64,000 bases of DNA, taken from contig JAOUBY010000001.1 of the NCBI GenBank assembly GCA_029860045.1, forward strand, positions 1,026 through 65,025. Direction: 5' to 3'. A model generated the notes under the pieces. That model made no database searches, had not been told where the DNA came from, and worked only from the letters and a program-made list of their open reading frames with translations. Source of the DNA: Gammaproteobacteria bacterium. GTDB lineage: Bacteria > Pseudomonadota > Gammaproteobacteria > UBA9214. Shown piece after piece: positions 13,597 to 63,985 of this stretch (positions are counted from its first letter, which is position 1; every line of letters starts with the position of its first letter). The translations under genes and the position numbers were made by a program.

Positions 13597-13608
13597 CGGA
13601 AAATTTGT

Positions 13609-13950: not shown

Positions 13951-13965
13951 GCATCCCAGCGACTG

Positions 13966-15552
13966 TTAACACTTGTCATCCAGCCTGGTATGAATCGCCA
14001 TCATCGTAATGTCATCTGCCTGTGGTGCTTCATCCGCAAATCGATCAATATCTTCAATCACAGCTTTTAATATCGTCTCAGGGTTGGCCTTTAACTGCCC
14101 ATTTAAAAGTTCCACAAGGCGCGGCACGGAATATAATTGCCCTTCCATGTCTTTCGCCTCGGTCACGCCATCGGTGTATAAAAACAGGGTGTCACTGCTC
14201 GAAAGTTGATGATTCCCATTTTCGTACACGGCCTTATCCAGTACGCCCAGGGCGATACCCGGCTTGCATTCCAGGTTTGTAACACCATCTGCAGGCGATA
14301 AAACAAACGGCGAATCGTGCCCGGCTGAGCAGTACACCAGTTTGCCAGTCTGTAAATCCAGCACGCCGCAAAATACCGTCACGAACATGCAGGCATCATT
14401 GTTGACACACAGCTCCCTGTTAACCGATTGCAGCAAATCGCCGGGTTGGGAATAATTATTGGCCTTGGTCCTTAGCAAGGTGCAGGTCATTGACATGAAT
14501 AATGCCGCTGGCACGCCTTTACCGGCAACATCACCGATTACAAAAAACAGCTTTCTGCCAAACTCACCGGTTTTTGAATCTGCGCCGTGTTCGCCCAGGT
14601 AAAAACAATCGAAAAGATCTCCGCCCACTTCTTTGGCCGAGCGCACCATGGCATAAACAATTACGTTCTTGTGCAGTTTCTTCAAGGTGGCCTGATCCGG
14701 CAGCATTTTTAGCTGGATTTCCCTGGCTACAGCCAGTTCAGTGTTAATCCGCTCCTGGGCTGCGACATTGCTGGCCAGGGTTTTAACTGATTCTGCGAGG
14801 GCGTCCTCCATGAAAATAAATGATTTGGCCAGCTCGCCAATTTCATCGTGTGAGTGACTGGTCAGTCGCGCAATTTCGTGCTTGAAGCAGTCGATATTTT
14901 CAATATCCACGCTGGCCAGTTTTTCAGCGTGCCGGTTCAGAACAGTTAAGGGCTGCGAGATTTTATCGATCAGAAAGTACGTAATGATGATACTCAGGAT
15001 CATTAATAATAAAACGATGCCCTGCTGCTGCAGGATAATAGACAGAATCTGATCCTTGATCAGGCTTTTATCCATACCCACCAGCACGTAACCCGCCTCA
15101 CCGCCTAAAATGGGTGAAACAATGTTTTGATGACGCTCCATTTCGTGGATGTCATTGTCAAACGTACCGGCCCGGTGGTTTACCAGGTCAAGCTTCAAAT
15201 TGTGCGTGAGTTGCGCAATATCATTCGGGATACCCGGAACAAAAGTGTGTGCAACGATGTCACCCGCCCTGTCGGCTATTAACACATGAGAAACACCCTC
15301 AACTCCCAGGTATTCATCAATCGTGGATTGCAGTGCCGCCGGGTTATCTGCCATCAGGGCCGCAATGCTCGCTTCGGCCAGAATGCTGCCGATAGAATGG
15401 CCTTTGACGTCAAACTCCTGTGTCATGCCGGTGTAGATCGACCAGGCAGATAATATTGAGATGCTGGTCGAGATCAACCCGAACAGCACCACTACAACAA
15501 TGAGAGTTTTTTTAAAGAGGCGGGACACCGGGACTCCAGCCTGACCAATCAT
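13966..15552 (-). CDS. membrane HAMP-PP2C (SpoIIE/RsbU-type) serine phosphatase with periplasmic sensor domain
   Basis: 528 aa; two TM segments flanking a ~130-aa periplasmic region, a HAMP-like linker, then PP2C motifs (GGDLFDCF, VIGDVAGKG, DGVTE); convergent with the STAS gene. Confidence 0.8.
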   Translation of the reverse strand: MIGQAGVPVSRLFKKTLIVVVVLFGLISTSISILSAWSIYTGMTQEFDVKGHSIGSILAEASIAALMADNPAALQSTIDEYLGVEGVSHVLIADRAGDIVAHTFVPGIPNDIAQLTHNLKLDLVNHRAGTFDNDIHEMERHQNIVSPILGGEAGYVLVGMDKSLIKDQILSIILQQQGIVLLLMILSIIITYFLIDKISQPLTVLNRHAEKLASVDIENIDCFKHEIARLTSHSHDEIGELAKSFIFMEDALAESVKTLASNVAAQERINTELAVAREIQLKMLPDQATLKKLHKNVIVYAMVRSAKEVGGDLFDCFYLGEHGADSKTGEFGRKLFFVIGDVAGKGVPAALFMSMTCTLLRTKANNYSQPGDLLQSVNRELCVNNDACMFVTVFCGVLDLQTGKLVYCSAGHDSPFVLSPADGVTNLECKPGIALGVLDKAVYENGNHQLSSSDTLFLYTDGVTEAKDMEGQLYSVPRLVELLNGQLKANPETILKAVIEDIDRFADEAPQADDITMMAIHTRLDDKC

Positions 15553-28480: not shown

Positions 28481-30889
28481 TCAGGCGGCCTCGTGTATTG
28501 GCAGTTCGAAGGAGAATTCCGCGCCACCGCCGGCCAGCGTCCTGGCAAAGATGTTGCCGGCGTGGGACTCGACTATGGAACGACTGATCGATAGCCCGAT
28601 CCCCATGCCGTCCGGCTTGGTCGAATAAAATGCATCGAATATTTTCGGTAGTGCTTCCTTGGATACGCCTTGTCCGGTATCAGAAGCGATGAGCTGTACG
28701 GTCTCCCCGTTACTGCGCGTGGTAATCTTTAGCTGGCGGCTTCCTGTCTCGGTCATATCCATGGCGTCAATGCTGTTGCGGATGAAGTTCAGTATCACCT
28801 GTTCGAGCTGGATCATGTTGCCCAGTACGGGCGGCAGTTCCTTGTCCAGGTCGAGTTCGATACCGACATCATGCCTGCGCGCTTCCATCATGACCAGCGC
28901 GGTAATGTTGCTGGCCGCCTTGTTCAGGTCCACCAGAGTACGTTCAGCGCTTTCTTTTTGCACAAATTCACGGATATTGCGGATGATATTGGCCGCCAGT
29001 GTGGCGCCTTCAATAGCCCGCTCCATGCCCTCGACGATCTTGTCAGTATCACTCGTGCCATCGCGCAAAAGACGCAGGCAGCCGCTGCTGTAGTTGATAG
29101 CGCCAGTCAGCGGCTGGTTGAGTTCATGGGCGAGGCTGGCCGCCATCTCGCCGATCGTGCTCATGCGCGAGACGCGCGCCAGTTCCGACTGGTGCCGCTG
29201 CTGTGATTCAGAGGCTAGTTGTCGTTCCATTTCGTCACCGATCCACTGGGCCATGACCTTGAGCAACTCGAGGTCCCATTTGCTGAGGTGCTTTTCGCGA
29301 ATCCCTGTACCGGCGAACTCCAGTGTGCAATGGACGCGTCCTTCCACCAGCACTGCGGTGCCGAGGTAGCTCTGCAAGCCCTGTACCTCGCAGTCCGGGC
29401 AGGACACCCTGGCCGCGGAGAGGTCCGGTACATCGAGCGGTTCGCCATGCAATGCGATCAGTTTACTTGCGCCCTTTGCATTCAGGGGGCCCGGGTTTTC
29501 AGGTATCAGGCCTGCCTCGCCGGAGGTCTTGCAGTGGCAAACACCCTGCTCGTTACGCTCGGCACTGGACAGTACCGCAACGGGAAGATCGAAATACGCG
29601 CGACCCGTCTCCAGCAGACGGGACATCCGCTCGTCGTGTGAGAGTTCCGGGGCACTGGTAATGCGCACCAGTTCGCGTAGCGCCACCCGGCTTTTCTCCA
29701 GCCCCTCGTTGGTGGTCTTCAGGTCTTCGGTACGCGTCGCGACCTGTTCTTCCAGCGTGTCGCGGTAGCGAGCCAGTTTCGCCTGTGATTTTTCGCGTTC
29801 CTTGATTTCCCGGCGCAGGTTACGCTCGGTATCCTTGAGCCTGCGGTTGGTGTTGGATATATAGCCGTTCAGCAGCACCAGGAAGCCCAGCAGCAGCCCA
29901 ATCCCGACAAACCACCAGGCGTAGCGCTTGAGCATCCCGAGAAAGGAAGCCTGGCGCAGTACTTCGTAGGGGCCAATCTGCAGTGCCTGCATCAGATCAT
30001 GCACAGGGGAGTAGTCCAGCGGTACCGTCCATCCGGCCATGCGCGCCGCCTGTGTGGCGGGGTGGTTGGCCGGCATCGATAGCAGTGCCTGGGCCACGCG
30101 GGTGGCGAGTTCCCTGGGGGCATTCTTTGTCATTGCGAATGGCCACTCGGGGTATAAGCGAGTACTCAGCGGGAAGGGCGTGTTGTCCAGGCTCTGCGGA
30201 TTGAGGATGCAAAACTCGCCCTCGGCCACCTTGCCGCTTTCAATCATCCGCACCAGTGTTTCGGCCCGCACTGTCGCCGCATCGATCTCGCCCTTGTGTA
30301 CGGCCATGATGATCTTGTCCTGGGGAAAACCGGCAAAGTGCAGTTCGCGGATGTCGCTGAAGGGATCAATGCCATGCTCATTCAGTTCCCGCCAGGCCAT
30401 CTGGAAACCGCCAAAGGCTTTTTGGCTGACGGCCATAAAGGATTTGCCTTTCAGGTCAGCAAGCGTAGTGATGTCGGGTCGGTCGGCGCGCGCGATGATC
30501 ACGGCGCCATAGCGAACGCGGGTTTGCTCGCCCTCGCGGGTCTGCATGGTGGCGATACGTGAAACACCGTGGCTTGTTTCCAGGCTGACATAGTTGCCCG
30601 GATTGGTGAGTGTAAAGTGGATGTATCCTTCCTGAATGGCCCGGGGCATTTCCTCGAGGTTGACGGGCACAATCTCGAAGTGATGGGTGGTTATTCTTTC
30701 AGACAGATAGTCTGCGGTCGGTGACCAGCGCTCCACCGCCTCTTGCTTGCCACGGTGGGCCAGCACACCGATGCGTACGACCGTGACCTGATCAGTGGGC
30801 GAGGCCGGGGTCGCAGGCGTGCTCACCAGCAGCATGGGCAGCAGCAGTGGCACCAGCAAGTGCCAGCGTGGTTTGATTGACCGGAACAT
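28481..30889 (-). CDS. sensor histidine kinase with periplasmic PhnD/SsuA-like binding domain (TtrS-like)
   Basis: Signal peptide, ~300-aa periplasmic PBP-like domain, TM, coiled coil, GAF-like region, HisKA (HELNQPL) and HATPase (GMGIGLSISRSIV). Confidence 0.8.
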   Translation of the reverse strand: MFRSIKPRWHLLVPLLLPMLLVSTPATPASPTDQVTVVRIGVLAHRGKQEAVERWSPTADYLSERITTHHFEIVPVNLEEMPRAIQEGYIHFTLTNPGNYVSLETSHGVSRIATMQTREGEQTRVRYGAVIIARADRPDITTLADLKGKSFMAVSQKAFGGFQMAWRELNEHGIDPFSDIRELHFAGFPQDKIIMAVHKGEIDAATVRAETLVRMIESGKVAEGEFCILNPQSLDNTPFPLSTRLYPEWPFAMTKNAPRELATRVAQALLSMPANHPATQAARMAGWTVPLDYSPVHDLMQALQIGPYEVLRQASFLGMLKRYAWWFVGIGLLLGFLVLLNGYISNTNRRLKDTERNLRREIKEREKSQAKLARYRDTLEEQVATRTEDLKTTNEGLEKSRVALRELVRITSAPELSHDERMSRLLETGRAYFDLPVAVLSSAERNEQGVCHCKTSGEAGLIPENPGPLNAKGASKLIALHGEPLDVPDLSAARVSCPDCEVQGLQSYLGTAVLVEGRVHCTLEFAGTGIREKHLSKWDLELLKVMAQWIGDEMERQLASESQQRHQSELARVSRMSTIGEMAASLAHELNQPLTGAINYSSGCLRLLRDGTSDTDKIVEGMERAIEGATLAANIIRNIREFVQKESAERTLVDLNKAASNITALVMMEARRHDVGIELDLDKELPPVLGNMIQLEQVILNFIRNSIDAMDMTETGSRQLKITTRSNGETVQLIASDTGQGVSKEALPKIFDAFYSTKPDGMGIGLSISRSIVESHAGNIFARTLAGGGAEFSFELPIHEAA

Positions 30890-35404: not shown

Positions 35405-36172
35405 TCATAAGTCGAGATTTCCGGCTTCAAGGTGCCGATCCCTGAATTCGATCGGCGTTAAATCTTTCAGCGATGAGTGTGGGCGAAAGGTATTGTATTC
35501 CTCCCGCCACGACTCGATCTTCTCACGCGCATCATCCAGCGACAAGAACCAGTGACTGTTCAGACATTCATCCCGAAAGCTGCCGTTAAATGATTCGATA
35601 AACGGGTTATCCGTTGGTTTCCCCGGCCTGGAGAAGTCCAATGTCACACCGTTCTCGTAGGCCCACTTATCCAGAACCTTCGAAATAAACTCGCTGCCGT
35701 TGTCCACCTGAATGCGATCAGGGCATCGGTCATGGCATCGCTGCATGTGTGCCATGATACCCACAACATGCTCTCCTCGGATGCTGCGATCAACATGGAT
35801 AAGCATGCATTCTCGACTAAAATTATCGACCACAGTTAACGCCCGAATGCGCGAGCCGTCAAACAGATTGTCGGCTACAAAATCCATGCTCCAGCACTGA
35901 TCGATTGTAGACAGCTCGGGGCGCTCCATCCGGTGTGCTGCCGCAACATGGCGCCTTGGCCGCTTGCTCCTTAGATTTAACCCTTCCTCTTTGTATATGC
36001 GGTGAACTTTCTTATGGTTGACCTGCCAGCCTTCTCGCCGAAGCAACACGTGGATGCGCTGATAACCATAACGCATCCGCGTGGCTGCAATCTCCTTGAT
36101 CCGTTGACGCAGTACCGTATCGGGGCTGCGCCGTGACTTGTAGTGATAGACTGACTCCGATATCGCTACCAC
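35405..36172 (-). CDS. IS3-family transposase OrfB (DDE integrase core), expressed by -1 frameshift from OrfA
   Basis: rve-domain pattern (DNGSEF..., HSSLKDLTPIEF). Confidence 0.85.
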   Translation of the reverse strand: MVAISESVYHYKSRRSPDTVLRQRIKEIAATRMRYGYQRIHVLLRREGWQVNHKKVHRIYKEEGLNLRSKRPRRHVAAAHRMERPELSTIDQCWSMDFVADNLFDGSRIRALTVVDNFSRECMLIHVDRSIRGEHVVGIMAHMQRCHDRCPDRIQVDNGSEFISKVLDKWAYENGVTLDFSRPGKPTDNPFIESFNGSFRDECLNSHWFLSLDDAREKIESWREEYNTFRPHSSLKDLTPIEFRDRHLEAGNLDL

Positions 36173-36246: not shown

Positions 36247-36513
36247 TCAGAGCTTTTTTTGCAGCACATCCTGAAGCATTTGTTTATCCAGGCTTAAATC
36301 CGCCACCATACGCTTCAATCGGTAGTTCTCGTCTTCCAACTGTTTTAGGCGCCTGACCTCTGAGACCCCAAGCCCACCGTACTTCTTCTTCCAGTTGTAA
36401 AACGTGGCCTCTGATATCCCCATCTTGCGACAGACCTCGTTAACCCGTGCACCTGTCTCAGCTTGGCGCAATGCAAAAGCGATCTGTTGATCTGTGAACT
36501 TTGTTCTCTTCAT
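36247..36513 (-). CDS. IS3-family transposase OrfA (HTH)
   Basis: MKRTKFTDQQIAFALRQAETGARVNEVCRKMGISEATFYNWKKKYGG... leucine-zipper tail; slippery AAAAAAG near its 3' end. Confidence 0.85.
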   Translation of the reverse strand: MKRTKFTDQQIAFALRQAETGARVNEVCRKMGISEATFYNWKKKYGGLGVSEVRRLKQLEDENYRLKRMVADLSLDKQMLQDVLQKKL

Positions 36514-37330: not shown

Positions 37331-38209
37331 TTGTCTACTCAACCTTTGAACACCCTCCGCCCGGGTAACCGGGCGGAGGGTCGCATCACAGGTACTGGCA
37401 TCGGGCTGCGCAGCCCACATATCCGCGAAGTGCTGGATACGCAGCCTGACGTCCCGTGGTTTGAGATACTTACGGACAACCATACCGCGGCTGGTGGGCG
37501 TACTGCAGCGGAACTCATGGCAATCCGTGAATGCTATCCGATAACCTTTCATTGTGTCGGCCTCTCACTTGGCAGCAGCGATCCTTTGGATCAGGGGTAC
37601 CTGGACACGTTGAAGACCATGCATGCACGCTATGAGCCGGCATGGATTTCCGATCATCTGTGCTTCAGCAGCCTCGATGGCACCCATTACCATGATTTAT
37701 TACCATTACCTTTCACCGAAGAGGCGGTAGAGCATGTGGCCAGGCGCATTGGTTTCGTACAGGAATTCCTGGGCCAGCGCATTCTTGTCGAAAATGTCTC
37801 CAGCTATATGGCCTATACCCACTCAGTCCTTTCGGAAGCCGAATTTCTGGCGGCCGTATCCGAGACTGCAGATTGCGACCTGCTACTGGACATCAATAAT
37901 ATCTATGTCAACGAATTCAATCATGGCCTGTCCGGCATCGACTATCTGGATGCCATCCCGTTGCGGCGGGTACGTGAAATCCACCTGGGAGGTTTTGAAG
38001 ACAAGGGAGCCTTTTTGCTGGACGCCCACAATCATGCTGTCAGCAAACCCGTATGGGCCTTGTACCGGGAATGTATAAAGCGTATTCCGGGTACCCCCAC
38101 CTTGATCGAATGGGACAACGATATCCCCGGATTTTCTATATTACAACAGGAAGCTGAAACCGCGCGGCGCATCGCTGCGGAGCAGTCAGCGGCGCAAAAC
38201 GGAGCCTGA
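37331..38209 (+). CDS. bufB: MNIO family (DUF692) multinuclear non-heme iron oxidative enzyme
   Basis: 292 aa; GIGLRSPH...VPWFEILTDNH N-terminal signature of DUF692/MbnB-like TIM barrel; 3-nt gap from bufA. Confidence 0.75.
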   Translation: MSTQPLNTLRPGNRAEGRITGTGIGLRSPHIREVLDTQPDVPWFEILTDNHTAAGGRTAAELMAIRECYPITFHCVGLSLGSSDPLDQGYLDTLKTMHARYEPAWISDHLCFSSLDGTHYHDLLPLPFTEEAVEHVARRIGFVQEFLGQRILVENVSSYMAYTHSVLSEAEFLAAVSETADCDLLLDINNIYVNEFNHGLSGIDYLDAIPLRRVREIHLGGFEDKGAFLLDAHNHAVSKPVWALYRECIKRIPGTPTLIEWDNDIPGFSILQQEAETARRIAAEQSAAQNGA

Positions 38210-38213
38210 CAGA

Positions 38214-38996
38214 ATGCAACTGGCCGACTTCGAGCGCCGTATTATGCAGGGTATCACCCCAGTAGCTGCTACCCAGGACCGGCAAGCCACGGAACAGATG
38301 CTGAAGCCTGGTGGGGAGTTGACGGCCAAAGAGTGTCTGGCTGTTTACCGTAACAACATCACGAGTACCCGGGTGCGTGCGCTGCAAGCCATTTACCCCG
38401 TGTGCGAAACTATTCTGGGCAGTGATTGTTTTCGTGTCCTGGCGAGGGAGTTTGCCTGGCAGGCGGCCGATGCCTGTGCGGACCTCAATGTCTATGGCGG
38501 GCAGCTTGCAGAATACCTGGGCGCACAGCAGCGGAGTAATTTTTCACTGCTACCCTACCTGAAAGAACTGGCCCGGCTGGAATGGAATTGGCACACTGCC
38601 TACTATGCCGCGGATACTGCGCCTTTCGCTTACCAATCATTTTCTAGCGCTGCGGCTCACCCTGAACGATTGCGCTTTACCCTTGCTGACGGTCTTGCTT
38701 TGCTGGAAACAAAATATCCAGTGAGGGAAATCTGGCAACGGCATCGTGCGCGGGAAAATCCGGATAGCATCCCTGCGCTTGAAGCCTGCGAATACCTGTG
38801 CATCCACCGTCCTGATTATGGACCCCAGGTTACATCTCTGGGTAAAACAACATATGTCTTGCTTACACGTATCCAAAAGGGCAGTACGCTGGAACAACTC
38901 GGGGATACAGCAGAGCTAAGCGAAAATCTGGCTGAACTACTACCGGTTCTGATCCAGCGGGGCTGGGTGTCAGGATTCCAGTTGTTGTCGGTATAG
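38214..38996 (+). CDS. bufC: DUF2063 partner protein of MNIO enzyme
   Basis: 260 aa; N-terminal AVYRNNITSTRVRALQAIYPV signature of DUF2063. Confidence 0.7.
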   Translation: MQLADFERRIMQGITPVAATQDRQATEQMLKPGGELTAKECLAVYRNNITSTRVRALQAIYPVCETILGSDCFRVLAREFAWQAADACADLNVYGGQLAEYLGAQQRSNFSLLPYLKELARLEWNWHTAYYAADTAPFAYQSFSSAAAHPERLRFTLADGLALLETKYPVREIWQRHRARENPDSIPALEACEYLCIHRPDYGPQVTSLGKTTYVLLTRIQKGSTLEQLGDTAELSENLAELLPVLIQRGWVSGFQLLSV

Positions 38997-46153: not shown

Positions 46154-46404
46154 GGTGCTCCCCCTTGTTGATTGTGCACCCTGAATAACAGCGATTGTGA
46201 GGTAAATCAAGCCGCTTAAAAAACTGTGCGACACCCTCTATAATGGGCCCGGTTATGGTGGCTTGTGCCGGTCCCCCCGCGACGATAAGCTGTGAACCCC
46301 GTCAGGCCCGGAAGGGAGCAGCGGCAGCAGTGGACTCGGGCGCCGGGGTGTGGCTGGTGCAGGTCGCCTCCATTATTTTGCAAAATACCAAAACAAGGCC
46401 ATAA

Positions 46405-53184: not shown

Positions 53185-53332
53185 GAGCGCCTTGCAGGCG
53201 CGATCTGCTCAAATCTGAATTTTATCGCGCCTGCAAGGCGCTCCTGCAACAATCAGATACCCCTGCAGGAGCGCATCTCATCCGCGAACGGGATTAACGA
53301 TCATGCATGTCGCGCATGAGATGTGCTCCTAC
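53182..53332. repeat. REP family-1 cluster: two inverted pairs (type GTAGGAGCGCCTTGCAGGCGCGAT and type GTAGGAGCGCATCTCATCCGCG)
   Basis: Four arms at 53182-205, 53224-247, 53264-287, 53310-332; first arm contains the orn stop codon, last arm overlaps the 3' end of the rhodanese gene. Confidence 0.8.
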
Positions 53333-54144
53333 TCTACGGGTAGTGAGGGATCATTCCCCCAGTCTGACCAGGAACCCGGGTAGCCCTTGATATCCGGGTA
53401 ACCCAGCTGCTTCAGTACCAGGTAGGTGTGCGCAGAGCGGTGATGAGTCTGGCAATAGCAGATTACCTGCTTGTCCGGTGTGGCACCGACACTGTCGAGC
53501 AGGGCGGTTAGTTCGGTGTCCGGTTTAAAACGCAGGTTGCGTCCCGCGTCAATTGCCTGCGTCCATTCCATGTTGACGGCGCCGGGGATGTGGCCGGCGC
53601 GCTCGGCATATTTTTTCACCCCAAGGTATTCATCCGGGCTGCGCACATCGAGCAGGCAACAGGTACTGTCACCCAGGTGTTCCCGGATGTAGTCGCTGCG
53701 TGCGATAGGGGTATCCCGGTGCTGTACGACAAACGACTTTGCGACCGGGGTGACAACCGTGTTGTCGTAGCGATGCCCCTCGTTGGCCCAGGCATGCAGG
53801 CCGCCGTTTAGCAAAGAGAAACGTTCGTGGCCGGCGGTCTCCAGTGTCCACAACAGGCGCGCGGCACGGCCACCGCCCTCGTCGTCGTAGGCCACGACAT
53901 GGGTATCGGTATCGATGCCGAGCGCGGAGAATTGTTTTTCCAGTGTGTCGTCGTCCGGTAGCAGGCCCATGACCGGTTTCCGCATGGCAACGATTTGCGC
54001 GTAATCAAGGTGTACCGCGCCAGGTACGTGCAGTTTGCGGTAGTTGTCGGGCTTACTCAGGTCAACAATCAGGAGGTTGTCGTAACCCAAAGATTCTTCG
54101 AGAATGTCCGGCTCGATCAGTAGCGGCAGATTGTCGGTGCTCAT
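53329..54144 (-). CDS. two-domain rhodanese-family sulfurtransferase
   Basis: 271 aa; tandem rhodanese domains; active-site Cys in CYCQTHHRS. Confidence 0.8.
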   Translation of the reverse strand: MSTDNLPLLIEPDILEESLGYDNLLIVDLSKPDNYRKLHVPGAVHLDYAQIVAMRKPVMGLLPDDDTLEKQFSALGIDTDTHVVAYDDEGGGRAARLLWTLETAGHERFSLLNGGLHAWANEGHRYDNTVVTPVAKSFVVQHRDTPIARSDYIREHLGDSTCCLLDVRSPDEYLGVKKYAERAGHIPGAVNMEWTQAIDAGRNLRFKPDTELTALLDSVGATPDKQVICYCQTHHRSAHTYLVLKQLGYPDIKGYPGSWSDWGNDPSLPVE

Positions 54145-55373
54145 TATGTTTCCTGGTGATTCAGCGCAGAGAGTAATTCAACCCAGTGCACGACCGGTAC
54201 CCTGGCCTGTCCGGCCATATGCGCAAGACAGCCGATGTTGGCCGTGGCAATCAGTTCCGGGTCCTCGGCCTGCAATGCAGCGAGCTTGTTATCGCGCAGC
54301 GGGGTTGCCAGCTTGTCCTGCAGGATGGAATAGGTGCCGGCCGAGCCGCAACACAGGTGCGCATTGGCAACCGGCACCAGCTGGTAGCCGAGCCGCGTGA
54401 GCATGTCCTCGACCACGCCGACAATGCGCTGACCGTGCTGCAGGGTGCAGGGGGCATGAAAGGCGATGCGCCTGGCGGATGCGGCAGGCAGCGTCTGCCA
54501 GGGTTGTTCGGCAGCAATGACCTCGCTGATGTCTTTTGCAAGTTCACTGACCTGTGCGGCTTTGCGCGCATAGCGAAAATCGTCCGCCAGCAGTCGCCCG
54601 TAATCCTTGACCATGGGTGCACAGCCGCTGGCCGTCACCACGATGGCCTCGGCACCACGTTCAATATGCGGCCACCAGGCATCGATGTTGTGGCGCATGA
54701 AGTCCTTTGCTTCCGCGCTTGCGTTGAGGTGGAAACTCAGCGCGCCGCAGCAGCCATCACCGTTCTCCTTTACCACGTTGATACCAAGTGCATACAGGAC
54801 CTGCTGTGCGGCATGATTGATCTGTGGTGCCATTCCTGGCTGTACGCAGCCGTTCAGCATCAGTACCGAGCGCCTGTGCCTGGGGCCAGGTGAGGCTGCC
54901 TTGATGTTGCGGTAGGCCGGAATGCGCTGCTTCAGCCGTCCCGGTAACAGTGGCCGCAACAGCTGTCCGCTACGCAACAGCAGGGTAAAACGCGAGCGGT
55001 GCGCCAGCAGCTTGCGCAGTGCAAGACGCAGTAGCCGCTCCGTCAGCGGACGCCGGGTCGCCTGTTCCGTGAGTTCGCGCCCGGTATCCAGCAGTCGGTG
55101 GTAGTCGACACCGGACGGGCAGGTCGTCTCGCAGGCGCGGCAGGTCAGGCAGCGGTCCAGGTGCAGCCGGGTTTTGCTTGTCGGTGGCGTGCCTTCCAGT
55201 ACCTGCTTGATGAGGTAGATGCGCCCGCGTGGTCCGTCCAGTTCGTCGCCGGTCAGCTGGTAGGTCGGGCAGGTCGCATTGCAGAAGCCGCAGTGCACAC
55301 AGTTACGCAAAATCTCGTCTGCCTCACGGCCGGTGTCCGTCTGCAGCAGCTTGTCGGGTAGCGCGGTCTGCAT
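54144..55373 (-). CDS. glcF: glycolate oxidase iron-sulfur subunit
   Basis: 409 aa; two 4Fe-4S CxxCxxCxxxCP motifs and CCG domains. Confidence 0.9.
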   Translation of the reverse strand: MQTALPDKLLQTDTGREADEILRNCVHCGFCNATCPTYQLTGDELDGPRGRIYLIKQVLEGTPPTSKTRLHLDRCLTCRACETTCPSGVDYHRLLDTGRELTEQATRRPLTERLLRLALRKLLAHRSRFTLLLRSGQLLRPLLPGRLKQRIPAYRNIKAASPGPRHRRSVLMLNGCVQPGMAPQINHAAQQVLYALGINVVKENGDGCCGALSFHLNASAEAKDFMRHNIDAWWPHIERGAEAIVVTASGCAPMVKDYGRLLADDFRYARKAAQVSELAKDISEVIAAEQPWQTLPAASARRIAFHAPCTLQHGQRIVGVVEDMLTRLGYQLVPVANAHLCCGSAGTYSILQDKLATPLRDNKLAALQAEDPELIATANIGCLAHMAGQARVPVVHWVELLSALNHQET

Positions 55374-55375
55374 GC

Positions 55376-56431
55376 TCAGAACTCCCGGTACAGGCGTCCC
55401 GGATTCAGGATGCCGGCCGGGTCAAAAGTCTGCTTGATGCGCTGATGCAGTGCCAGCAACGCAGGTGGCAGGGGGTGAAAGATCTCGCTGTCACGCTCGC
55501 CGCCACGGAACAGCGTGGCATGGCCTCCGGCTGCAGCTGCAGCAAGGCGGATGTCTCGTGCTGGCAAGTCACTCGCCAGCCAGCGCTGTGCGCCGCCCCA
55601 GTCCAGCAGCCAGTGGCCGTCAAGGTCCAGTGGCGCGCTGGCCGGTGGCACCGAGAGGCGCCAGAGAGTGCTTGCCGAGGTGAAGAACGCCAGTTGCTGT
55701 TCTCGTAATTGCTGCCAGAAGGTGTTGCTCTCATCCAGTTGCTCGCCGCCCAGTGTCCGGGCAGCGGCGCTGACACTGCGGGCACTGCCGGAGAGCCGGA
55801 TCATCAGTTGATTCTCGTCGTGGCTGGCGCCACTCAGTGGCAACGCCTGCCCGGCCCAGCGGTTGCAGCGCTGGATTGCCTCGTCAGCAGAACAGTCCTG
55901 GTAGAGCGTGATTTCCTGTTGCGGTTTTGGCAACACCTTGAGATGCACGTCGAGCAGCACCGCCAGCGTTCCCAACGAGCCGGTCAGTGTGCGTGACAGG
56001 TCGTAACCGGCGACATTTTTCATTACCTGCCCACCCAGGCGCAGTTGCTCGCCGCGGCCATTGATGCAGTTAACGCCCAGCACAAAATCACGCGCCGCGC
56101 CGGCATACGGTCGTCTCGGTCCGGACAGGCCGCAGGCGATAGTGCCGCCCAGTGTTGCGCTGGCAGCAAAGCGCGGGGGTTCGAATGCCAGCATCTGGCC
56201 TTCTGCTGCGAGGGTGTTTTCCAGTTCAGACAGTGTGGTACCGGCGCGAGCCGAGACCACCAGCTCTGACGGTGTGTAATCGATGATGCCGCTGTATTGT
56301 GCAACCGGGAGCGGTGAGCCATTTACAGCGCGCCCGTAAAACGCCTTGCTGTTGCCGCCCTGGATCGCGAGCGCGGTGCCGCTGGCTGCGGCCTCGCGCA
56401 CCTGTTCGCTCAGAGTCTGTACATCTTGCAT
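55376..56431 (-). CDS. glcE: glycolate oxidase FAD-binding subunit
   Basis: 351 aa; FAD_binding_4 pattern; between glcD and glcF. Confidence 0.85.
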   Translation of the reverse strand: MQDVQTLSEQVREAAASGTALAIQGGNSKAFYGRAVNGSPLPVAQYSGIIDYTPSELVVSARAGTTLSELENTLAAEGQMLAFEPPRFAASATLGGTIACGLSGPRRPYAGAARDFVLGVNCINGRGEQLRLGGQVMKNVAGYDLSRTLTGSLGTLAVLLDVHLKVLPKPQQEITLYQDCSADEAIQRCNRWAGQALPLSGASHDENQLMIRLSGSARSVSAAARTLGGEQLDESNTFWQQLREQQLAFFTSASTLWRLSVPPASAPLDLDGHWLLDWGGAQRWLASDLPARDIRLAAAAAGGHATLFRGGERDSEIFHPLPPALLALHQRIKQTFDPAGILNPGRLYREF

Positions 56432-56442
56432 GGGCAGGGAGA

Positions 56443-57897
56443 TCAGAATCGTTCCAGTTCGGGGTGCGGGAGCTGCCCATGGTGGACATGCATGGCACCG
56501 AATTCCGCACAGCGGTGCAGGGTGGGGATGGCCTTGCCGGGATTGAGCAGCCCGTGTGGATCAAAAGCGGCCTTGACGGCGTGAAACTGCTGCAGTTCGG
56601 CATTGTTGAATTGCACACACATCTGATTGATTTTTTCCAGGCCAACACCGTGCTCGCCGGTAATGGTGCCGCCCACGGCAACGCAGAGTTCCAGAATTTT
56701 TCCGCCCAGTTCTTCGGTGCGTTCCAGTTCGCCGGGCTTGTTGGCATCGTACAGGATCAGCGGGTGCAGGTTGCCGTCGCCGGCGTGGAACACATTGCAG
56801 ATCGGCAGGTTGTATTCCTGTGACAGGCGTTCGATCTCGTTCAGTACCTGTGCCAGGTGCTTGCGGGGAATGGTGCCGTCCATGCAGTAGTAGTCCGGCG
56901 ACAGTCGACCCATGGCGGGAAACGCGGCCTTGCGACCGGCCCAGAAGCGCATGCGTTCGGCCTCGTTGTGCGAGACCTGCAGCGAGCTACAGCCGGCTTC
57001 ATGAAATACGCTGCTGACCTGTTCGACCTGTGCCACGACATCATCCGCGTCGCCATCCAGTTCGCACAGCAGGATGGCAGCGGCATCGGTCGGATAACCG
57101 GTCGACATGAACTTGTCCACCGCCCGGATGGCGGGGTTGTCGAGCAGTTCCAGGCCGGCCGGGATGATGCCGCTGGCAATGGTCGCAGTCACCGCGGCAC
57201 CGGCAGCGTCGACCGAGTCAAATGCCGCCAGCACCACCTGTGCTGCTTGTGGGCATGGCAGCAGCTTGACGGTGATCTCGGTGATCACGCCAAGCAGGCC
57301 CTCCGAGCCGGTCAGCAATGCCAGCAGGTCAAAGCCGGGGGCATCGAGTGCCTGGCTGCCCAGGGTGAGTTGTTCGCCGTCAATGGTGAGCAGTTCGAGC
57401 GACTGGATGTTGTGTGTGGTCAGTCCGTATTTAAGACAGTGCACGCCGCCGGCATTTTCCGCCACATTGCCGCCGATGGAGCAGGCGATCTGGGATGACG
57501 GGTCCGGTGCGTAGTAAAGTCCGTAGGGTTCGGCTGCCCTGGAGATGGCCAGGTTGGTTACGCCTGGCTGCACCCTGGCTACGCGGTTATCACGGTCGAT
57601 GGCAATGATACGGTTGAATTTTGCCAGGCTGAGTATCACGCCATCGGCCAGCGGCATGGCGCCGCCGGACAGTCCCGTGCCGGAGCCGCGCGCCACCACG
57701 GGTACCCTGTGCTCCGTGCAGAGGGCCAGCGTGGTACGCAACTGTTGCTCCGTTGCCGGGATGACCACCGCCATGGGTAACTGGCGGTAGGCGGACAGCG
57801 CGTCGCATTCGTACGGGCGCAGGTCCTCCGGGTCGAACAGCACGCACTCGGCAGGCAGTTGCCCGCGCAGTCGGGAAATGATCGTTTTGTCAGACAT
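56443..57897 (-). CDS. glcD: glycolate oxidase subunit GlcD (FAD-linked oxidase)
   Basis: 484 aa; FAD-linked oxidase N- and C-terminal domains. Confidence 0.9.
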   Translation of the reverse strand: MSDKTIISRLRGQLPAECVLFDPEDLRPYECDALSAYRQLPMAVVIPATEQQLRTTLALCTEHRVPVVARGSGTGLSGGAMPLADGVILSLAKFNRIIAIDRDNRVARVQPGVTNLAISRAAEPYGLYYAPDPSSQIACSIGGNVAENAGGVHCLKYGLTTHNIQSLELLTIDGEQLTLGSQALDAPGFDLLALLTGSEGLLGVITEITVKLLPCPQAAQVVLAAFDSVDAAGAAVTATIASGIIPAGLELLDNPAIRAVDKFMSTGYPTDAAAILLCELDGDADDVVAQVEQVSSVFHEAGCSSLQVSHNEAERMRFWAGRKAAFPAMGRLSPDYYCMDGTIPRKHLAQVLNEIERLSQEYNLPICNVFHAGDGNLHPLILYDANKPGELERTEELGGKILELCVAVGGTITGEHGVGLEKINQMCVQFNNAELQQFHAVKAAFDPHGLLNPGKAIPTLHRCAEFGAMHVHHGQLPHPELERF

Positions 57898-58029: not shown

Positions 58030-58551
58030 ATGCAATGCACCGTCAGACATTTTCTTCATCACGGCATCCCCGCGAAAAATTTCGCCGGGTTGATGGAACT
58101 GTACGAGTGTAATTACATACGCCTGCGTAACCTGGTGCCGGATGCCGATGACATTCCGGACAACGTGATCTCGCGAATTGAGGGTGTACTGGATCTGCAC
58201 CTGCGCGTGGTGGAGCGTTGCAAATTCACTACCACGCTCAATCTCACCTATTACTTTCACGATCGCGAGGGCGAGTTTCCCGCACCGGACATGCAGGTAC
58301 GCCTGTACCACGATGCCCAGGTGGGCGAGGTGATCTCCTGCGGTCGTCGGCGCGGACAGCGTCATGCAGTCTACAATCGCATGTTCCATACCTATACGCT
58401 GGCCGAGAAATGGCGCATGAACCGTTTTCTGCAGAAATGGCTGGGTTACTGTCTGATGCAGGGTCACCGTTTCATTCCCGGTCGTGTGCTGGTGCCGGAA
58501 CAGGCCGCACCCGATGCCCAGACGCACAGCGTGGCCAGCGTCGAAACCTGA
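58030..58551 (+). CDS. DUF1249 (YqiB-like) protein
   Basis: VRLYHDAQVGEV and FLQKWLGYCL match E. coli YqiB blocks. Confidence 0.7.
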   Translation: MQCTVRHFLHHGIPAKNFAGLMELYECNYIRLRNLVPDADDIPDNVISRIEGVLDLHLRVVERCKFTTTLNLTYYFHDREGEFPAPDMQVRLYHDAQVGEVISCGRRRGQRHAVYNRMFHTYTLAEKWRMNRFLQKWLGYCLMQGHRFIPGRVLVPEQAAPDAQTHSVASVET

Positions 58552-58624
58552 GCAGAATTTCCCCCGGTATATCTCTATTGTGATAGTGCCCGGCGCTTGC
58601 ATGCATCGCGCCGCGCCCTCATAA

Positions 58625-58655
58625 TATTTCCTGACTATTTTACTTGGTTATTATC
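58625..58655 (+). promoter_or_regulatory. candidate IscR type-1 box / promoter region upstream of iscR
   Basis: TCCTGACTATTTTACTTGG resembles CCCGACTAAATCAGTCAAG type-1 IscR sites; CTCATAATA -10-like element just upstream. Confidence 0.3.
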
Positions 58656-58700
58656 CCGTGAGCGCCAATTCCACGGCTTTCTTGCGGGAATTTCATACCT

Positions 58701-59177
58701 ATGCGGCTATCGACAAAAGGACGTTATGCAGTAACCGCCATGCTGGACCTGGCCATTCATCATGGCGAGGGTGCTGTGACGCTTGCTGACATCTCCGAGG
58801 CGCAGGGCATTTCCCTGTCCTACCTCGAACAACTGTTCGCGCGACTGCGCAAGAACGGGCTGGTCGAGGGTATTCGGGGTCCCGGCGGGGGTTACCAGCT
58901 GTCGCGTCCGCCGACCGAGATATCGGTTGCACACGTAATCGATGCCATTGGTGAGGGTGTCGATGTGACCCTGTGTGGCGGCAAGACGGATTGCCAGGAA
59001 GGCGAGCGCTGCCTGACCCACGAGCTCTGGCAGCAACTCGGTGGCAGGATCCACGAGTTCCTTGAAGGTATTACCCTGGACAGCTTCCTGAAACGGAAGA
59101 ACGTCAACGCGGTAGTGCGTCGGCAGCAGAACGATCTCGCCGTCGAGACGCCCCGTCTGCGCAAGACGGTGGCCTGA
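58701..59177 (+). CDS. iscR: Fe-S cluster assembly transcriptional regulator IscR (Rrf2 family)
   Basis: [18 protein letters not shown]...; three cluster-ligand Cys ([13 protein letters not shown]). Confidence 0.9.
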
Positions 59178-59225
59178 GGCCAAGTGTTTACGAATCTGGA
59201 TTAACCTGTAGAGAAGGCAGATTGC

Positions 59226-60446
59226 ATGAACATCAGCATACCAATTTACATGGACTATTCAGCAACCACGCCGGTTGATGAGCGCGTTGCTGAAAAAATG
59301 ATGAGCTACCTGACACGTCAGGGCAAGTTTGGTAATCCTGCGTCACGTTCCCATTCCTTTGGCTGGGCGGCGGACGAGGCCGTGGTGCAGGCGCGCCAGG
59401 ACGTTGCGCAACTGGTCAATGCCGACCCGCGCGAGATTGTCTGGACCTCCGGTGCGACCGAGTCCGATAACCTGGCTATCAAGGGTGCGGCTCATTTCTA
59501 CAAGAAGGGCGGCAAGCACATCGTTACCCTGAAGACGGAACACAAGGCGGTGCTGGACTCCTGTCGTCAGCTGGAACGCGAAGGTTATGAAGTGACTTAC
59601 CTGGAGCCGGAGTCCAACGGGTTGCTTGATCTGAAAAAGCTGGAGGCGGCCCTGCGCGATGACACCATCCTGGTCAGTGTCATGCACGTCAACAACGAGA
59701 TCGGTGTTATCCAGGATATCGAGGCAATCGGCGAACTCTGTCGTGCCCGCAAGATCGTGTTTCATGTCGATGCTGCCCAGAGCGCAGGCAAGATTCCGAT
59801 CGACCTGGGTACACTCAAGGTCGACCTGATGTCGTTCTCGGCACACAAGATTTATGGCCCCAAGGGGATTGGTGCGCTGTATGTGCGCCGTAAGCCGCGT
59901 GTGCGCCTGGAGGCGCAGATGCACGGTGGCGGGCACGAACGTGGCCTGCGTTCCGGTACGCTGGCGACACACCAGATCGCCGGCATGGGTGAGGCGTTCC
60001 GCATAGCGCGCGAAGAGATGGCCGAGGAGGGCAAACGCATCCAGGCATTGCGCGATCGTCTCTGGAACGGACTGAACGAGATGGAAGAGGTCTACCTGAA
60101 TGGCGATATGGAACATCGTATACCGGGCAACCTGAACGTCAGTTTCAACTACGTGGAAGGTGAAAGCCTGATTATGGCGCTGAAGGACATGGCTGTTTCT
60201 TCCGGCTCGGCCTGTACCAGTTCCAGCCTGGAGCCGTCCTATGTACTGCGCGCCATCGGCCGCAATGACGAATTGGCACACAGCTCCATCCGCTTTACCA
60301 TTGGTCGTTTCACCACGGAAGAGGAAGTCGACTACATAATCGACCGGGTCAGGGAAAAGGTCGACAAGCTACGCGAGCTGTCACCGCTCTGGGATATGTA
60401 CAAGGACGGCATCGATCTGGATTCAGTCCAGTGGGCGGCACACTAG
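59226..60446 (+). CDS. iscS: cysteine desulfurase IscS
   Basis: 406 aa; PLP Lys ([12 protein letters not shown]), SSGSACTS active-site loop, C-terminus ...[22 protein letters not shown]. Confidence 0.95.
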
Positions 60447-60454
60447 GAAAAATT

Positions 60455-60778
60455 ATGGCGATAACCCTGACTGAAAACGCGGCGGAGCGCATCAGGAGCT
60501 TCATGGAGCAGCGGGGCGAGTGTGTCGCGCTGCGTCTTGCGGTCAAGACCACCGGCTGCTCGGGCATGGCCTACGTGATGGAATACGCCGATGTGATCGA
60601 GGATGACGACGTGCTGTTCGAGGATCATGGCGTCAAGCTGGTGGTCAATCCCAAGAGCCTGGTCTACCTTGACGGCACCGAGCTGGATTTCGCGCGGGAG
60701 GGTCTGAACGAGGGCTTCAAATTCAACAACCCGAACGTCAAGGACATGTGCGGTTGCGGCGAGAGCTTCAACGTTTAA
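60455..60778 (+). CDS. iscA: iron-sulfur cluster insertion protein IscA
   Basis: 107 aa; C-x-G...CGCGESF; starts 9 nt after the iscS stop, leaving no room for iscU. Confidence 0.9.
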
Positions 60779-60821
60779 TGTCAGTCGGTCACTGACGTCG
60801 CTGATTCAGCGTTCTACCCTT

Positions 60822-61373
60822 ATGGCTGTGGAGTCTTCCTCATCCCACTTTGAGTTGTTCGGTCTGCCCCGTTCGTTCGGTGTGGACCGGCAGTTGCTGG
60901 ATGCGCATTACAGGGAGCTGCAACGCACGGTACACCCGGATCGCTTCGTTAATGCCACGGATACCGAGCGCAGGTTGTCCGCGCAGCAGGCGACGCGTAT
61001 CAACGAGGGCTACCAGACGCTGAAAGACCCGCTGCTACGCGGACGCTACCTGCTGGAACTGGCGGGTATCGACCATAATGATGAGCATCGCACCACCCGG
61101 GACGCACGTTTCCTGATGGAACAGATGGATTTGCGCGAGACCCTGTCCGGGGTGCGCGATGCAGCGAACGTGTTTGCTGCGCTGGAGGAGATCATGGACC
61201 GTATCGGTACGGAACTGGATAATCTTACCGCCGAGGTCTCGGATCTGCTGGAGCGTGGCGATGCAGACAGCCTGGCCGGGGCCGGCGAGGCATTGATGAA
61301 GATGCAGTTCTACCGGCGACTGCAGGACGAGGCGGTGGAGCTGGAAGTGGAACTGGAAGACGAACTGGCCTGA
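60822..61373 (+). CDS. hscB: co-chaperone HscB
   Basis: J-domain HPD motif (TVHPDRF), three-helix C-terminal domain. Confidence 0.9.
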   Translation: MAVESSSSHFELFGLPRSFGVDRQLLDAHYRELQRTVHPDRFVNATDTERRLSAQQATRINEGYQTLKDPLLRGRYLLELAGIDHNDEHRTTRDARFLMEQMDLRETLSGVRDAANVFAALEEIMDRIGTELDNLTAEVSDLLERGDADSLAGAGEALMKMQFYRRLQDEAVELEVELEDELA

Positions 61374-61416
61374 ACCCGCATTCGACTGTTATTGACAACC
61401 TTGTTAGCTGACTCAA

Positions 61417-63294
61417 ATGGCACTGCTGCAAATCTCTGAACCCGGTCAGTCGACCGCGCCGCACCAGCACCGGCTGGCCGCTGGTATCGATCTGGGCACC
61501 ACCAATTCACTGGTGGCGAGCGTGCGCAGTGGCGTGGCCGATACCCTGCCGGATATGGACGGTCGCCACCTGTTGCCATCGGTGGTGCGTTACGGTGCAG
61601 AAGCCGCGCCTGTTGTTGGCCATGTCGCGCTGGATGCTGCGGTGGAAGATCCACTCAATACCATTGCCTCGGTGAAACGCCTGATGGGGCGTGGCATTGC
61701 CGACGTCAAGCACATTGGTTCGCAGCTGCCTTATGAGTTTGTCAGTGGTTCGAGCGGCATGCCGCTGCTGCACACCGCGGCGGGCGATGTCAGTCCGGTC
61801 GAGGTGTCGGCGCAGATCCTGCGCAGCCTGAAGGCGCGCGCCGAGCAAACCCTGGGTGGCGATTTGCAGGGCGTGGTTATTACCGTGCCGGCGTATTTCG
61901 ATGAGGCACAGCGCCAGGCGACCAAGGATGCCGGCCGGCTGGCCGGGCTGAACGTACTGCGCCTGCTGAACGAACCCACGGCCGCGGCCGTTGCCTACGG
62001 GCTCGATCAGGGTGCCGAGGGTGTCATCGCAATCTATGATCTCGGTGGGGGTACCTTTGATATTTCCATTCTGCGTCTCAACAAGGGCGTGTTCGAAGTG
62101 TTGTCCACGTCCGGGGACACGGCACTCGGTGGTGATGACCTGGACCGCGCTGTTGCGGGCTGGATCATGCAGCAGGCCGGCATAGCGGATGATGCCGGGC
62201 ACAGTGCCATGCGTCACCTGCTGCAACTGGCCTGTCATGCCAAGGAAACGTTGACCAGCCAGGACAGCGCTGAGCTCAGCATCACGCGGGCTGACGGCAG
62301 TGAGTGGCAGGGTATCCTGTCACGCGAGACATTCAACGCGCTGATAACGCCGCTGGTGGAAAAGACGCTGGGACCGTGCCGGCGTGCCTTGCGCGATGCC
62401 GGTGTGCGCGCACACGAGATACAGTCCGTGGTGATGGTCGGTGGCTCCACGCGGGTACCGCTGGTGCGTGAACGGGTTGCTGATCATTTCAGGACCGAAC
62501 CCATGGTCGATATCGACCCGGACAAGGTGGTTGCGGTGGGCGCTGCCATCCAGGCCGATATCCTTGCCGGCAACAAGCCGGATGAGGAAATGCTGTTGCT
62601 GGACGTGATCCCGCTGTCACTGGGGCTGGAGACCATGGGTGGACTGACGGAAAAGATTATTACACGCAATACCACCATCCCGGCGGCACGCGCGCAGGAA
62701 TTTACTACCTTCAAGGACGGCCAGACGGCCATGTCGCTGCACGTGGTGCAGGGCGAGCGTGAACTGGTTGACGACTGTCGTTCGCTGGCGAAGTTCGAAT
62801 TGCGCGAGATCCCGCCGCTGGTGGCCGGTGCCGCGCGCATCCGCGTTACCTTCCAGGTCGATGCCGATGGCTTGCTGAACGTGACCGCCGAAGAGCAGAC
62901 CACGGGGGTAAAGAGCAGTATCGAGATCAAGCCGTCATACGGCTTGAGTGATCGCGAGATTGAGACCATGCTGAAGGATTCCATGGAGTTTGCCGCCGAT
63001 GACCGCGATGCGCGGCGCCTGCGCGAGGAACAGGTCGAGGCCGACCGCGTGCTGGAGGCGGTGCATGCGGCGCTGGCAGTCGACGGTGATGTGTTGCTTG
63101 ATGAGCAGGAGCGGGCCCGCATTGATACGGCTGTTGCTGTGCTGACGGAACAACGCAACGGCAGCGACTATCGCGCCATCAGGCAGGCAATCGAGGCCGT
63201 CGAGCAGGCCAGCAGTGCCTGGGTTGAGCGGCGCATGAACAACAGTATCCGCGCAGCCATGGCCGGGCACAGCGTGGACGAATTCAAATCCTGA
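61417..63294 (+). CDS. hscA: Fe-S assembly chaperone HscA (Hsp70 family)
   Basis: 625 aa; IDLGTTNS..., DLGGGTFD Hsp70 signatures. Confidence 0.95.
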
Positions 63295-63331
63295 AATTTA
63301 TAAACCGTTTTACCATGAGATCCTGAATACC

Positions 63332-63670
63332 ATGCCGCAAATTATTTTCCTGCCCCACGAAGAGATCTGTCCGGAGGGGGCTGTCATCCAGGTAGAACCG
63401 GGTACCACCATTTGTGATGCCGCCCTGAAACAGGGTATCGAGATCGAGCACGCTTGCGAAAAGTCCTGTGCGTGCACGACCTGCCACGTGTATATCCGCG
63501 AGGGTGGAGAATCCCTCGATGAGACGACCGAAGACGAGGATGACCTGCTTGACAAGGCCTGGGGGCTGGACCCGGATTCGCGGCTCAGTTGCCAGGCCGT
63601 GGTGGGTGATGTCGACCTGGTAATCGAGATACCGAAATACACCATCAACATGGTGTCGGAGAATCATTAA
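63332..63670 (+). CDS. fdx: ISC-system [2Fe-2S] ferredoxin
   Basis: 112 aa; CEKSCACTTCHV...C cluster ligands. Confidence 0.9.
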   Translation: MPQIIFLPHEEICPEGAVIQVEPGTTICDAALKQGIEIEHACEKSCACTTCHVYIREGGESLDETTEDEDDLLDKAWGLDPDSRLSCQAVVGDVDLVIEIPKYTINMVSENH

Positions 63671-63685
63671 GGTTTATTACGGGTG

Positions 63686-63752
63686 TAGGAGCGCCTTGCA
63701 GGCGCGATTCAATTCCAGTGGTATTTCTATCGCGCCTGCAAGGCGCTCCTAC
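63686..63752. repeat. REP family-1 inverted pair (GTAGGAGCGCCTTGCAGGCGCGAT ... ATCGCGCCTGCAAGGCGCTCCTAC)
   Basis: Perfect 24-nt arms separated by 19 nt between fdx and iscX. Confidence 0.85.
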
Positions 63753-63784
63753 AGGTCTCAAATTTGCATGTCAGGAGAGCAAAC

Positions 63785-63985
63785 ATGTCACTGAAATGGA
63801 CAGATAGCCTCGATATCGCCATCGAACTGGAGGAGGCGCGCCCGGATGCCGATCCGCTCAAGGTCAATTTCGTCGACCTGCGCAACTGGGTCATGGAACT
63901 GGAATCATTCGACGATGATTCAGAACACTGTGGCGAACGCATCCTCGAGGCAATCCAGATGGCCTGGATAGAGGAACGTGATTAA
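63785..63985 (+). CDS. iscX: Fe-S assembly protein IscX (YfhJ)
   Basis: Start at MSLKWTDSLDIAIEL; acidic 66-aa protein. Confidence 0.8.
   Translation: MSLKWTDSLDIAIELEEARPDADPLKVNFVDLRNWVMELESFDDDSEHCGERILEAIQMAWIEERD

Follow-up and report, generated by a model that had tools for sequence, protein, structure and literature searches.

Few operon architectures in the Beta- and Gammaproteobacteria are as conserved as the order iscRSUA-hscBA-fdx, and the desulfurase gene iscS and the scaffold gene iscU are generally assumed to be co-transcribed. The iron–sulfur cluster (ISC) operon encoded in the 64-kb stretch of contig JAOUBY010000001.1 analysed here (the window) carries iscS directly followed by iscA, which raises the question of where the scaffold of this system is encoded, if it has one. 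The iscU gap is real, clade-wide and recurrent. Most likely the operon works as an ordinary ISC system, with an IscU-type scaffold gene that was moved out of it in the clade's ancestor and now lies at an unlinked locus.

All seven genes of the operon are co-oriented on the forward strand and intact, and they follow the order iscR-iscS-iscA-hscB-hscA-fdx-iscX given by the initial annotation, which was borne out by the open reading frame (ORF) listing and by the NCBIfam naming of every product. Genes were called from this listing and the sequence, and protein families were assigned with NCBIfam and Pfam. The cysteine desulfurase gene iscS (59226-60446; 406 amino acids) terminates with a TAG codon at 60444-60446, and the ATG of iscA (60455-60778; A-type iron–sulfur (Fe–S) carrier, 107 amino acids) lies at 60455, the ninth base past that stop, as claimed. 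At the canonical site of iscU there are therefore only the eight nucleotides GAAAAATT (60447-60454), and an AGGA Shine-Dalgarno-like sequence ahead of iscA overlaps the iscS stop. Both flanking proteins are full length by their termini: IscS matches NF010611 over model positions 2-406 of 406 (775.9 bits, cut-off 548) and scores 762 bits against TIGR02006 (cut-off 643.2), while IscA matches TIGR02011 over positions 1-107 of 107 (169 bits, cut-off 150.6) and has three cysteines within its GCSG and C-terminal CGCGESF motifs. Because both are complete, the spacer leaves no space for a scaffold gene and neither protein conceals a fused IscU.

The remaining genes are those of a conventional ISC operon. 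The Rrf2-family Fe–S-sensing regulator gene iscR (58701-59177; 158 amino acids) comes first, followed after iscA by the J-type co-chaperone gene hscB (60822-61373; 183 amino acids, with an HPD motif; TIGR00714 105.7 bits, cut-off 46.75), the Hsp70-type chaperone gene hscA (61417-63294; 625 amino acids; NF003520 1000.4 bits, TIGR01991 905.4 bits, cut-off 708.55), the ISC [2Fe-2S] ferredoxin gene fdx (63332-63670; 112 amino acids; TIGR02007 183.5 bits, cut-off 132.1) and iscX (63785-63985; 66 amino acids; TIGR03412 111.8 bits, cut-off 40.4), for which the ORF begins at a TTG at 63764 and the family model fits the ATG at 63785. IscS, IscA, HscB, HscA, Fdx and IscX exceed their equivalog cut-offs; IscR alone falls just under (TIGR02010 198.2 bits, cut-off 207.55), although it passes the Rrf2 superfamily model and, by alignment, keeps all of the cluster ligands C92, C98, C104 and H107 (E. 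coli numbering). Upstream of iscR (58597-58700, forward strand), a probable promoter, TTGCAT and CATAAT separated by 17 nucleotides, was read from the sequence together with an operator-like element, CCTGACTATTTTACTTGG, which we take to resemble the type-1 site of E. coli iscR; a consensus scan for IscR-type operators did not flag it.

Is the scaffold gene hidden elsewhere in the window? A tblastn search with Escherichia coli IscU across the 64 kb gave a best E-value of 2, and a hidden Markov model (HMM) of IscU built from 54 relatives, run on six-frame translations with filters off, found no match at E ≤ 10 in the window and 16 iscU-less loci (316 kb). Pfam scans of about 55 window ORFs revealed no suf, nif or nfu genes. 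Fusion of IscU to another gene of the operon, the finding by which the initial annotation would have been overturned, was ruled out, as every operon protein is of normal length, its model is fully covered and the IscU HMM is silent there. The window was taken from a 110,154-bp contig assembled from a metagenome, a fact that lends some substance to the suspicion that the gap is an artefact of assembly or binning, or else that the operon is decaying. Set against an artefact, an independent ENA metagenome contig (L001) encodes proteins 100% identical to those of the window with the same iscS-iscA junction, and the junction is present in 15 other species, each represented by a species-level metagenome-assembled genome (MAG), and in 79 metagenome contigs. 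Set against decay, the seven genes are intact, score at or near their equivalog cut-offs and are conserved at the same rate as those of canonical operons. We regard the probability of either as negligible, and the worry over mis-assembly that accompanied the first description of the locus is answered by the independent assembly and by the conservation of the junction throughout the clade.

How widespread the arrangement is was assessed by scanning 185,579 species-representative genomes with the window HscB and classifying the best 80 loci by tblastn. At every locus with an HscB identity of at least 56% and a covered junction (L002-L004, L006-L015, L037), iscS is directly followed by iscA, whereas iscU is present at every locus of lower HscB identity (55% or less) with the exception of L039, a MAG of Thiogranum sp. 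The iscS-iscA spacers of the clade measure 6-85 nucleotides including the stop, and in the longer of them (24-85 nucleotides including the stop) iscU remnants were sought with scores no better than those of shuffled sequence. Each clade genome, including the complete 2.6-Mb MAG chromosome CP070821.1, is listed once among the best 80 HscB loci; this is therefore its sole isc locus of that kind, and a second, canonical isc operon was discarded as an explanation. In the window and all main-clade loci iscS directly follows iscR, with no additional nifS-like gene between them. The clade is further marked by a DUF1249 gene directly 5′ of iscR (58030-58551 on the forward strand in the window, matched by Pfam and NCBIfam), which lies about 150-310 nucleotides upstream of iscR in the main-clade loci long enough to include it and in none of the iscU-containing or Thiogranum-type loci examined; it serves here as a synteny marker and is not a known Fe–S factor.

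A neighbour-joining tree of IscA, HscB, HscA and Fdx (59 taxa, 1041 columns, 100 bootstraps) recovers the clade of the window as monophyletic in 100 of 100 bootstraps. All iscU-less loci form a single group in none of the 100, which rules out one loss held in common with Thiogranum. Instead, the main clade clusters with the iscU-containing locus L016 (87/100) and L039 with the iscU-containing loci L017, L018, L022 and L025 (88/100); iscU has therefore left the operon at least twice.

The same junction is abundant in environmental DNA. A degenerate DNA pattern running from the end of iscS to the GCSGMAY motif of iscA, which recovered 15 of the 17 iscU-less loci already known and none with iscU, matched JGI metagenome contigs in at least 119 places, where a handful of chance matches at most is expected. 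IscU is absent from 79 of the 80 listed loci and iscS is directly followed by iscA in nearly all of them; the IscU HMM, applied to six-frame translations of these metagenome loci (453 kb), found nothing outside a single locus, L114. In a 96-locus tree restricted to loci long enough to place, 20 metagenome loci fall within the clade of the window, 7 within a Thiogranum-type clade and five (L096, L117, L120, L140 and L158) form deep, separate iscU-less lineages. Fitch parsimony on this tree gives at least five changes, an approximate figure, the tree having been built by a simple distance approach from proteins of the operon itself. The architecture had been called unusual at the outset, and measured against textbook operons it is; it is not a one-off, being fixed in a diverse and abundant sediment clade and having arisen repeatedly. 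The clade includes the MAG UBA9214, a name that appears in the literature searched only as that of a sediment clade, and the IscS of the window is deposited at NCBI as MDH3978932.1. Full-text literature searches yielded no description of an iscRSA-hscBA-fdx operon, of an Rrf2-iscU module (see below) or of Fe–S biogenesis in this clade, and the layout has apparently not been described before.

Whether the remaining machinery is still directed at an IscU-type scaffold can be judged from the surfaces that contact it. Clade proteins were aligned with their E. coli orthologues (L082) and with 36-63 iscU-containing relatives. In HscB, L92, L96 and F153 contribute most to IscU binding, with modest contributions from R99 and E100 (PMC3040723). 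Among 14 clade members L92, F153 and R99 are invariant, E100 is kept in 13, and L96 is replaced in all 14 by methionine, the residue also found in 52 of 63 iscU-containing relatives. Since the HscB proteins of the clade have diverged down to 56% identity, the invariance of this patch reflects selection. The IscS segments that touch IscU (helix α8, 309-316; E347; helix α12, 379-391; PMC2854127) show a pattern indistinguishable from that of iscU-containing relatives, and the substrate-binding region of HscA that forms the peptide cleft (395-445; peptide-bound structure in PMC6506825) is equally well conserved. More broadly, where iscU-containing relatives conserve an alignment column to at least 95%, the clade retains it in 99.5% of cases for IscS, 96% for HscA and 90% for HscB. 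Distances to E. coli are similar in the clade and in iscU-containing relatives (HscB 1.14 versus 1.10, HscA 0.46 versus 0.47, IscS 0.31 versus 0.30), with no acceleration of the two chaperones. Because the contact residues are conserved and the chaperones do not evolve faster, the ISC machinery appears, by comparison of sequences, still to serve an IscU-type scaffold. Two substitutions were noted in the same alignments: HscA P410 (E. coli numbering) is proline in 49 of 50 iscU-containing relatives and varies in the iscU-less clade (proline in 7, histidine in 4, threonine in the window), and IscA D65 is asparagine in 12 of 15 clade members.

In two kinds of relative the scaffold gene can be traced, and both show relocation of iscU rather than its loss. 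At L114 (JGI Ga0209554_1005559) the order is trmJ-cysE-iscU-iscR-nifS-like-iscS-iscA-hscB; the iscU product scores 227.8 bits (cut-off 192.4) and the gene ends 1 base before the start of iscR. The second arrangement, which was uncovered through the genome context of IscU proteins close to those of neighbouring lineages, is a conserved two-gene module in which an Rrf2 gene (151 amino acids) is followed by iscU (131-135 amino acids), far from any isc gene. At one end it borders on amt, mazG, rsd and an HDOD-domain gene, and RibD_C, NUDIX and PilZ genes adjoin it at the opposite end. The module occurs in a cultured bacterium, Thiogranum longum DSM 19610 (SMFX01000001.1, around 2.49 Mb, L219:7498-8396; WP_132973605.1), in MAGs of Thiogranum sp. 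and in vent MAGs and metagenome contigs; its loci besides L219 are L213, L214, L220-L223 and L228-L233. Its IscU scores 227 bits, above the TIGR01999 cut-off. The Rrf2 protein is IscR-like (145 bits, below the cut-off) and is devoid of C92, C98, C104 and H107, so that, by the known ligands, it could act only as an apo-type IscR. Isc operons of the Thiogranum type without iscU are represented by L039 and the 7 metagenome loci, and a vent metagenome, Ga0256832, contains both halves of the system, the operon (L137) and the module (L229). The module is absent from the main-clade loci examined (316 kb).

Rearrangements of other kinds were encountered around these operons. In many lineages of related sulfur oxidisers, the gene for an additional NifS-like cysteine desulfurase of about 376-379 amino acids, some 40% identical to IscS and below all equivalog cut-offs, is inserted between iscR and iscS (L036, L039, L047, L050, L054, L055, L057, L067, L069, L070 and L086, as well as L100, L114, L117, L126, L129 and L130). 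The MAG GCA_018819175.1 and the ENA metagenome ERZ27247117 (L202/L203 versus L205/L206) hold two iscS-iscU copies with 96-97% identical DNA, one in a canonical operon and the other followed by unrelated genes, namely a 74-amino-acid ORF, DUF938 and an iron-containing alcohol dehydrogenase gene. At L208:3822-5432 (ENA ERZ25043462 NODE_648) the order is DUF1249-iscR-iscU-iscA-hscBA-fdx-iscX, without iscS. From 15 nucleotides 5′ of iscU onward this contig is 99.96% identical to a canonical one (L209, ERZ25043444 NODE_36), and its left part resembles the DUF1249-iscR segment of the window clade, the two meeting at a clean junction made up of the iscR stop, 5 nucleotides and a ribosome-binding site; a natural recombinant and a chimera are both conceivable. 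Evidently, the 5′ part of the isc operon is prone to rearrangement in this group.

We propose the following account of the window. Its operon would be the one housekeeping ISC operon of an uncultured gammaproteobacterium from sediment, in whose clade ancestor iscU was cleanly excised from between iscS and iscA, the order DUF1249-iscR-iscS-iscA-hscB-hscA-fdx-iscX being inherited from then on. IscS would supply sulfur, and Fdx electrons, to an IscU-type scaffold; HscB, through its hydrophobic patch, and HscA, through its LPPVK-binding cleft, would bind that scaffold and drive cluster release, with the cluster passing to IscA and on to target proteins. The scaffold gene would be unlinked and transcribed separately from iscS, and we infer that an iscU of this kind is present in the genome from which the window comes, too. 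IscS also feeds tRNA thiolation and cofactor synthesis, and for this reason an uncoupling that lets the scaffold and a multi-purpose desulfurase be regulated separately may plausibly be beneficial.

Several observations weigh against this account. IscA and IscX of the clade lie at a somewhat greater distance from their E. coli orthologues than those of iscU-containing relatives do (0.457 versus 0.374 and 0.849 versus 0.688, respectively), and their faster evolution could hint at a changed role; the contact residues of IscS could, for their part, have been retained for structural reasons. In Thiogranum longum it is the module that was seen, and the iscU-less operon of this type was seen in L039 and the 7 metagenome loci. 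No IscU of the clade was found in the 316 kb of clade loci or the 453 kb of metagenome loci. Searches of a collection of 5.8 billion proteins with the IscU proteins of L018 and P0045 gave, for each query, 120 best matches, all at least 85% identical, and none of these 240 could be attributed to the clade of the window, a weak negative; equally weak is the finding that none of the NCBI-named IscU candidates checked has an accession near MDH3978932.1. The genome contexts of nine IscU candidates comprised the Thiogranum-type module and several canonical operons, none attributable to the clade of the window. An IscS paralogue lying beside an iscU was sought as well, and the best 120 IscS matches, all of 404-409 amino acids and at least 86% identical, included no obvious paralogue.

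The clade might instead have no IscU-type scaffold at all, its clusters being assembled on another protein such as IscA, SufBCD or an Nfu-type protein, with HscBA acting on a different client or on IscA only. The failure of every search made to find an IscU for the clade and the divergence of IscA and IscX would both fit, as would the clade-specific D65N substitution in IscA. We nevertheless think this unlikely. The HscB residues for which IscU binding is the sole known role are invariant in 14 genomes despite the divergence of the protein around them, the HscA cleft is conserved, and neither chaperone has accelerated. A new chaperone client bearing an LPPVK-like motif was considered and dropped, the motif LPP[VILEQ]K occurring in no ORF of the clade loci, and the window contains none of the suf, nif or nfu genes that might supply another scaffold. 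Both relatives in which the scaffold can be traced have kept iscU, and in E. coli the A-type carriers are unable to replace IscU or SufBCD (PMC2682760).

A scaffold of another type or origin might also exist, a nifU/iscU paralogue having been named in the initial annotation; were it, for example, a three-domain NifU encoded in a nif cluster, or else SufU-like, iscU would have been replaced and not relocated. Among the listed matches there was no clade IscU sharing at least 85% identity with the IscU proteins of neighbouring lineages, and the extra nifS-like desulfurase in the operons of related sulfur oxidisers shows that NIF-type parts circulate in the group. The clade of the window, however, has no nifS-like gene in its operon, and the relatives that could be traced use a true IscU that scores above the equivalog cut-off. 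The NifU of Azotobacter vinelandii carries LPPEK and not LPPVK, while the HscA cleft is unchanged here. Taken together, we hold replacement to be very unlikely. Relocation of a true iscU thus stays the explanation that we favour. The initial annotation had left it at a scaffold encoded elsewhere or replaced; the need for one is supported indirectly in this genome, by the conserved contact residues and chaperone rates, and directly in relatives, and the choice of elsewhere over replaced is our inference.

The operon variant is real, ancient, recurrent and environmentally common, and probably conventional in mechanism. Repeated removal of iscU while every partner retains its IscU interface shows that desulfurase and scaffold need not be coupled stoichiometrically, and it speaks for a scaffold that is regulated separately. 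The Thiogranum type, with iscU paired to an IscR paralogue that lacks the known cluster ligands, offers a testable regulatory design. In practical terms, pipelines that demand an iscSU pair when annotating Fe–S pathways would call ISC incomplete in a clade common in coastal and vent sediments. It is improbable that the clade runs the full IscS-IscA-HscBA-Fdx-IscX set with no IscU or NifU scaffold anywhere in its genome, some other protein, of which IscA is the obvious candidate, serving as both assembly site and chaperone client. Should the scaffold really be lacking, nature would have provided in this clade a test of ISC function without one, and were no IscU or NifU encoded anywhere, the clade would be a natural system that reopens the old question of IscA as an alternative scaffold.

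Beyond the operon, several features of the window deserve mention. On the reverse strand, the glycolate oxidase genes glcD, glcE and glcF (53329-57897) are followed by a two-domain rhodanese gene, the stop of which overlaps the glcF start by 1 nucleotide, and in L001 malyl-CoA lyase and malate thiokinase genes lie 3′ of iscX; together these suggest a glycolate/glyoxylate assimilation typical of autotrophs. Genes at 45-2510 (forward strand) encode Memo-like, AMMECR1 and radical SAM proteins in a row, the AmmeMemoRadiSam trio. A partner-switching module at 13045-15552, made up of an anti-sigma-type kinase (HATPase_c_2), a STAS-domain protein and a SpoIIE-type phosphatase, adjoins a gene for a periplasmic binding protein. 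A tRNA-Gly(GCC) called by ARAGORN at 29108-29201 (forward strand) lies within a histidine-kinase ORF (28481-30889), has no Rfam call and is probably a false positive. The segment 31337-36513, in which a tRNA-Ser(GGA) is followed by an extracytoplasmic function (ECF) sigma factor with its zf-HC2 anti-sigma partner, a GspH-like pseudopilin and an IS3-family element (orfA 36247-36513, orfB 35405-36172), may have been acquired, since GC content at third codon positions is lower there. At 37331-38996 (forward strand) a DUF2063 gene comes after a gene of the MbnB/TglH/ChrH family (DUF692), a pair typical of clusters that modify peptides, akin to those for ribosomally synthesised and post-translationally modified peptides. 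A small signal recognition particle RNA (46266-46362, forward strand; 68.4 bits) sits directly 5′ of dnaX-ybaB-recR.

Compared with the iscRSUA-hscBA-fdx-iscX operon of E. coli K-12 (b2531-b2524; L082), the operon of the window shares seven genes, their order and orientation, the short intergenic distances, the IscR ligands and the IscU-contact residues of IscS, HscB and HscA. It differs in having 8 nucleotides where E. coli has iscU (128 amino acids) between iscS and iscA, and in its neighbours, which are a DUF1249 gene upstream, where E. coli has trmJ, and, from L001, malyl-CoA lyase and malate thiokinase genes downstream. A further parallel is the split system of the Thiogranum type, found in Gammaproteobacteria of sediments and vents that form a closely related lineage, in which iscR-nifS-like-iscS-iscA-hscBA-fdx-iscX is complemented by the separate Rrf2-iscU pair. 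The two share the iscS-iscA junction, the chaperones and the ferredoxin, although iscU was lost independently; the Thiogranum type has the extra nifS-like gene after iscR and no DUF1249 marker, whereas the reverse holds in the window, and the iscU of the Thiogranum type lies beside an IscR-like regulator without cluster ligands. The operon at L114 has the same iscS-iscA junction, with iscU placed at the head of the cluster, while the window has no iscU upstream of iscR. Minimal IscS-IscU or NifS-NifU systems, such as the ISC system of Methanosarcina acetivorans (PMC7585200), show that a desulfurase and a scaffold can function as a module apart from chaperones and carriers; they are without HscB, HscA, Fdx and IscX, whereas in the window a chaperone-containing operon is complete but for its scaffold gene.

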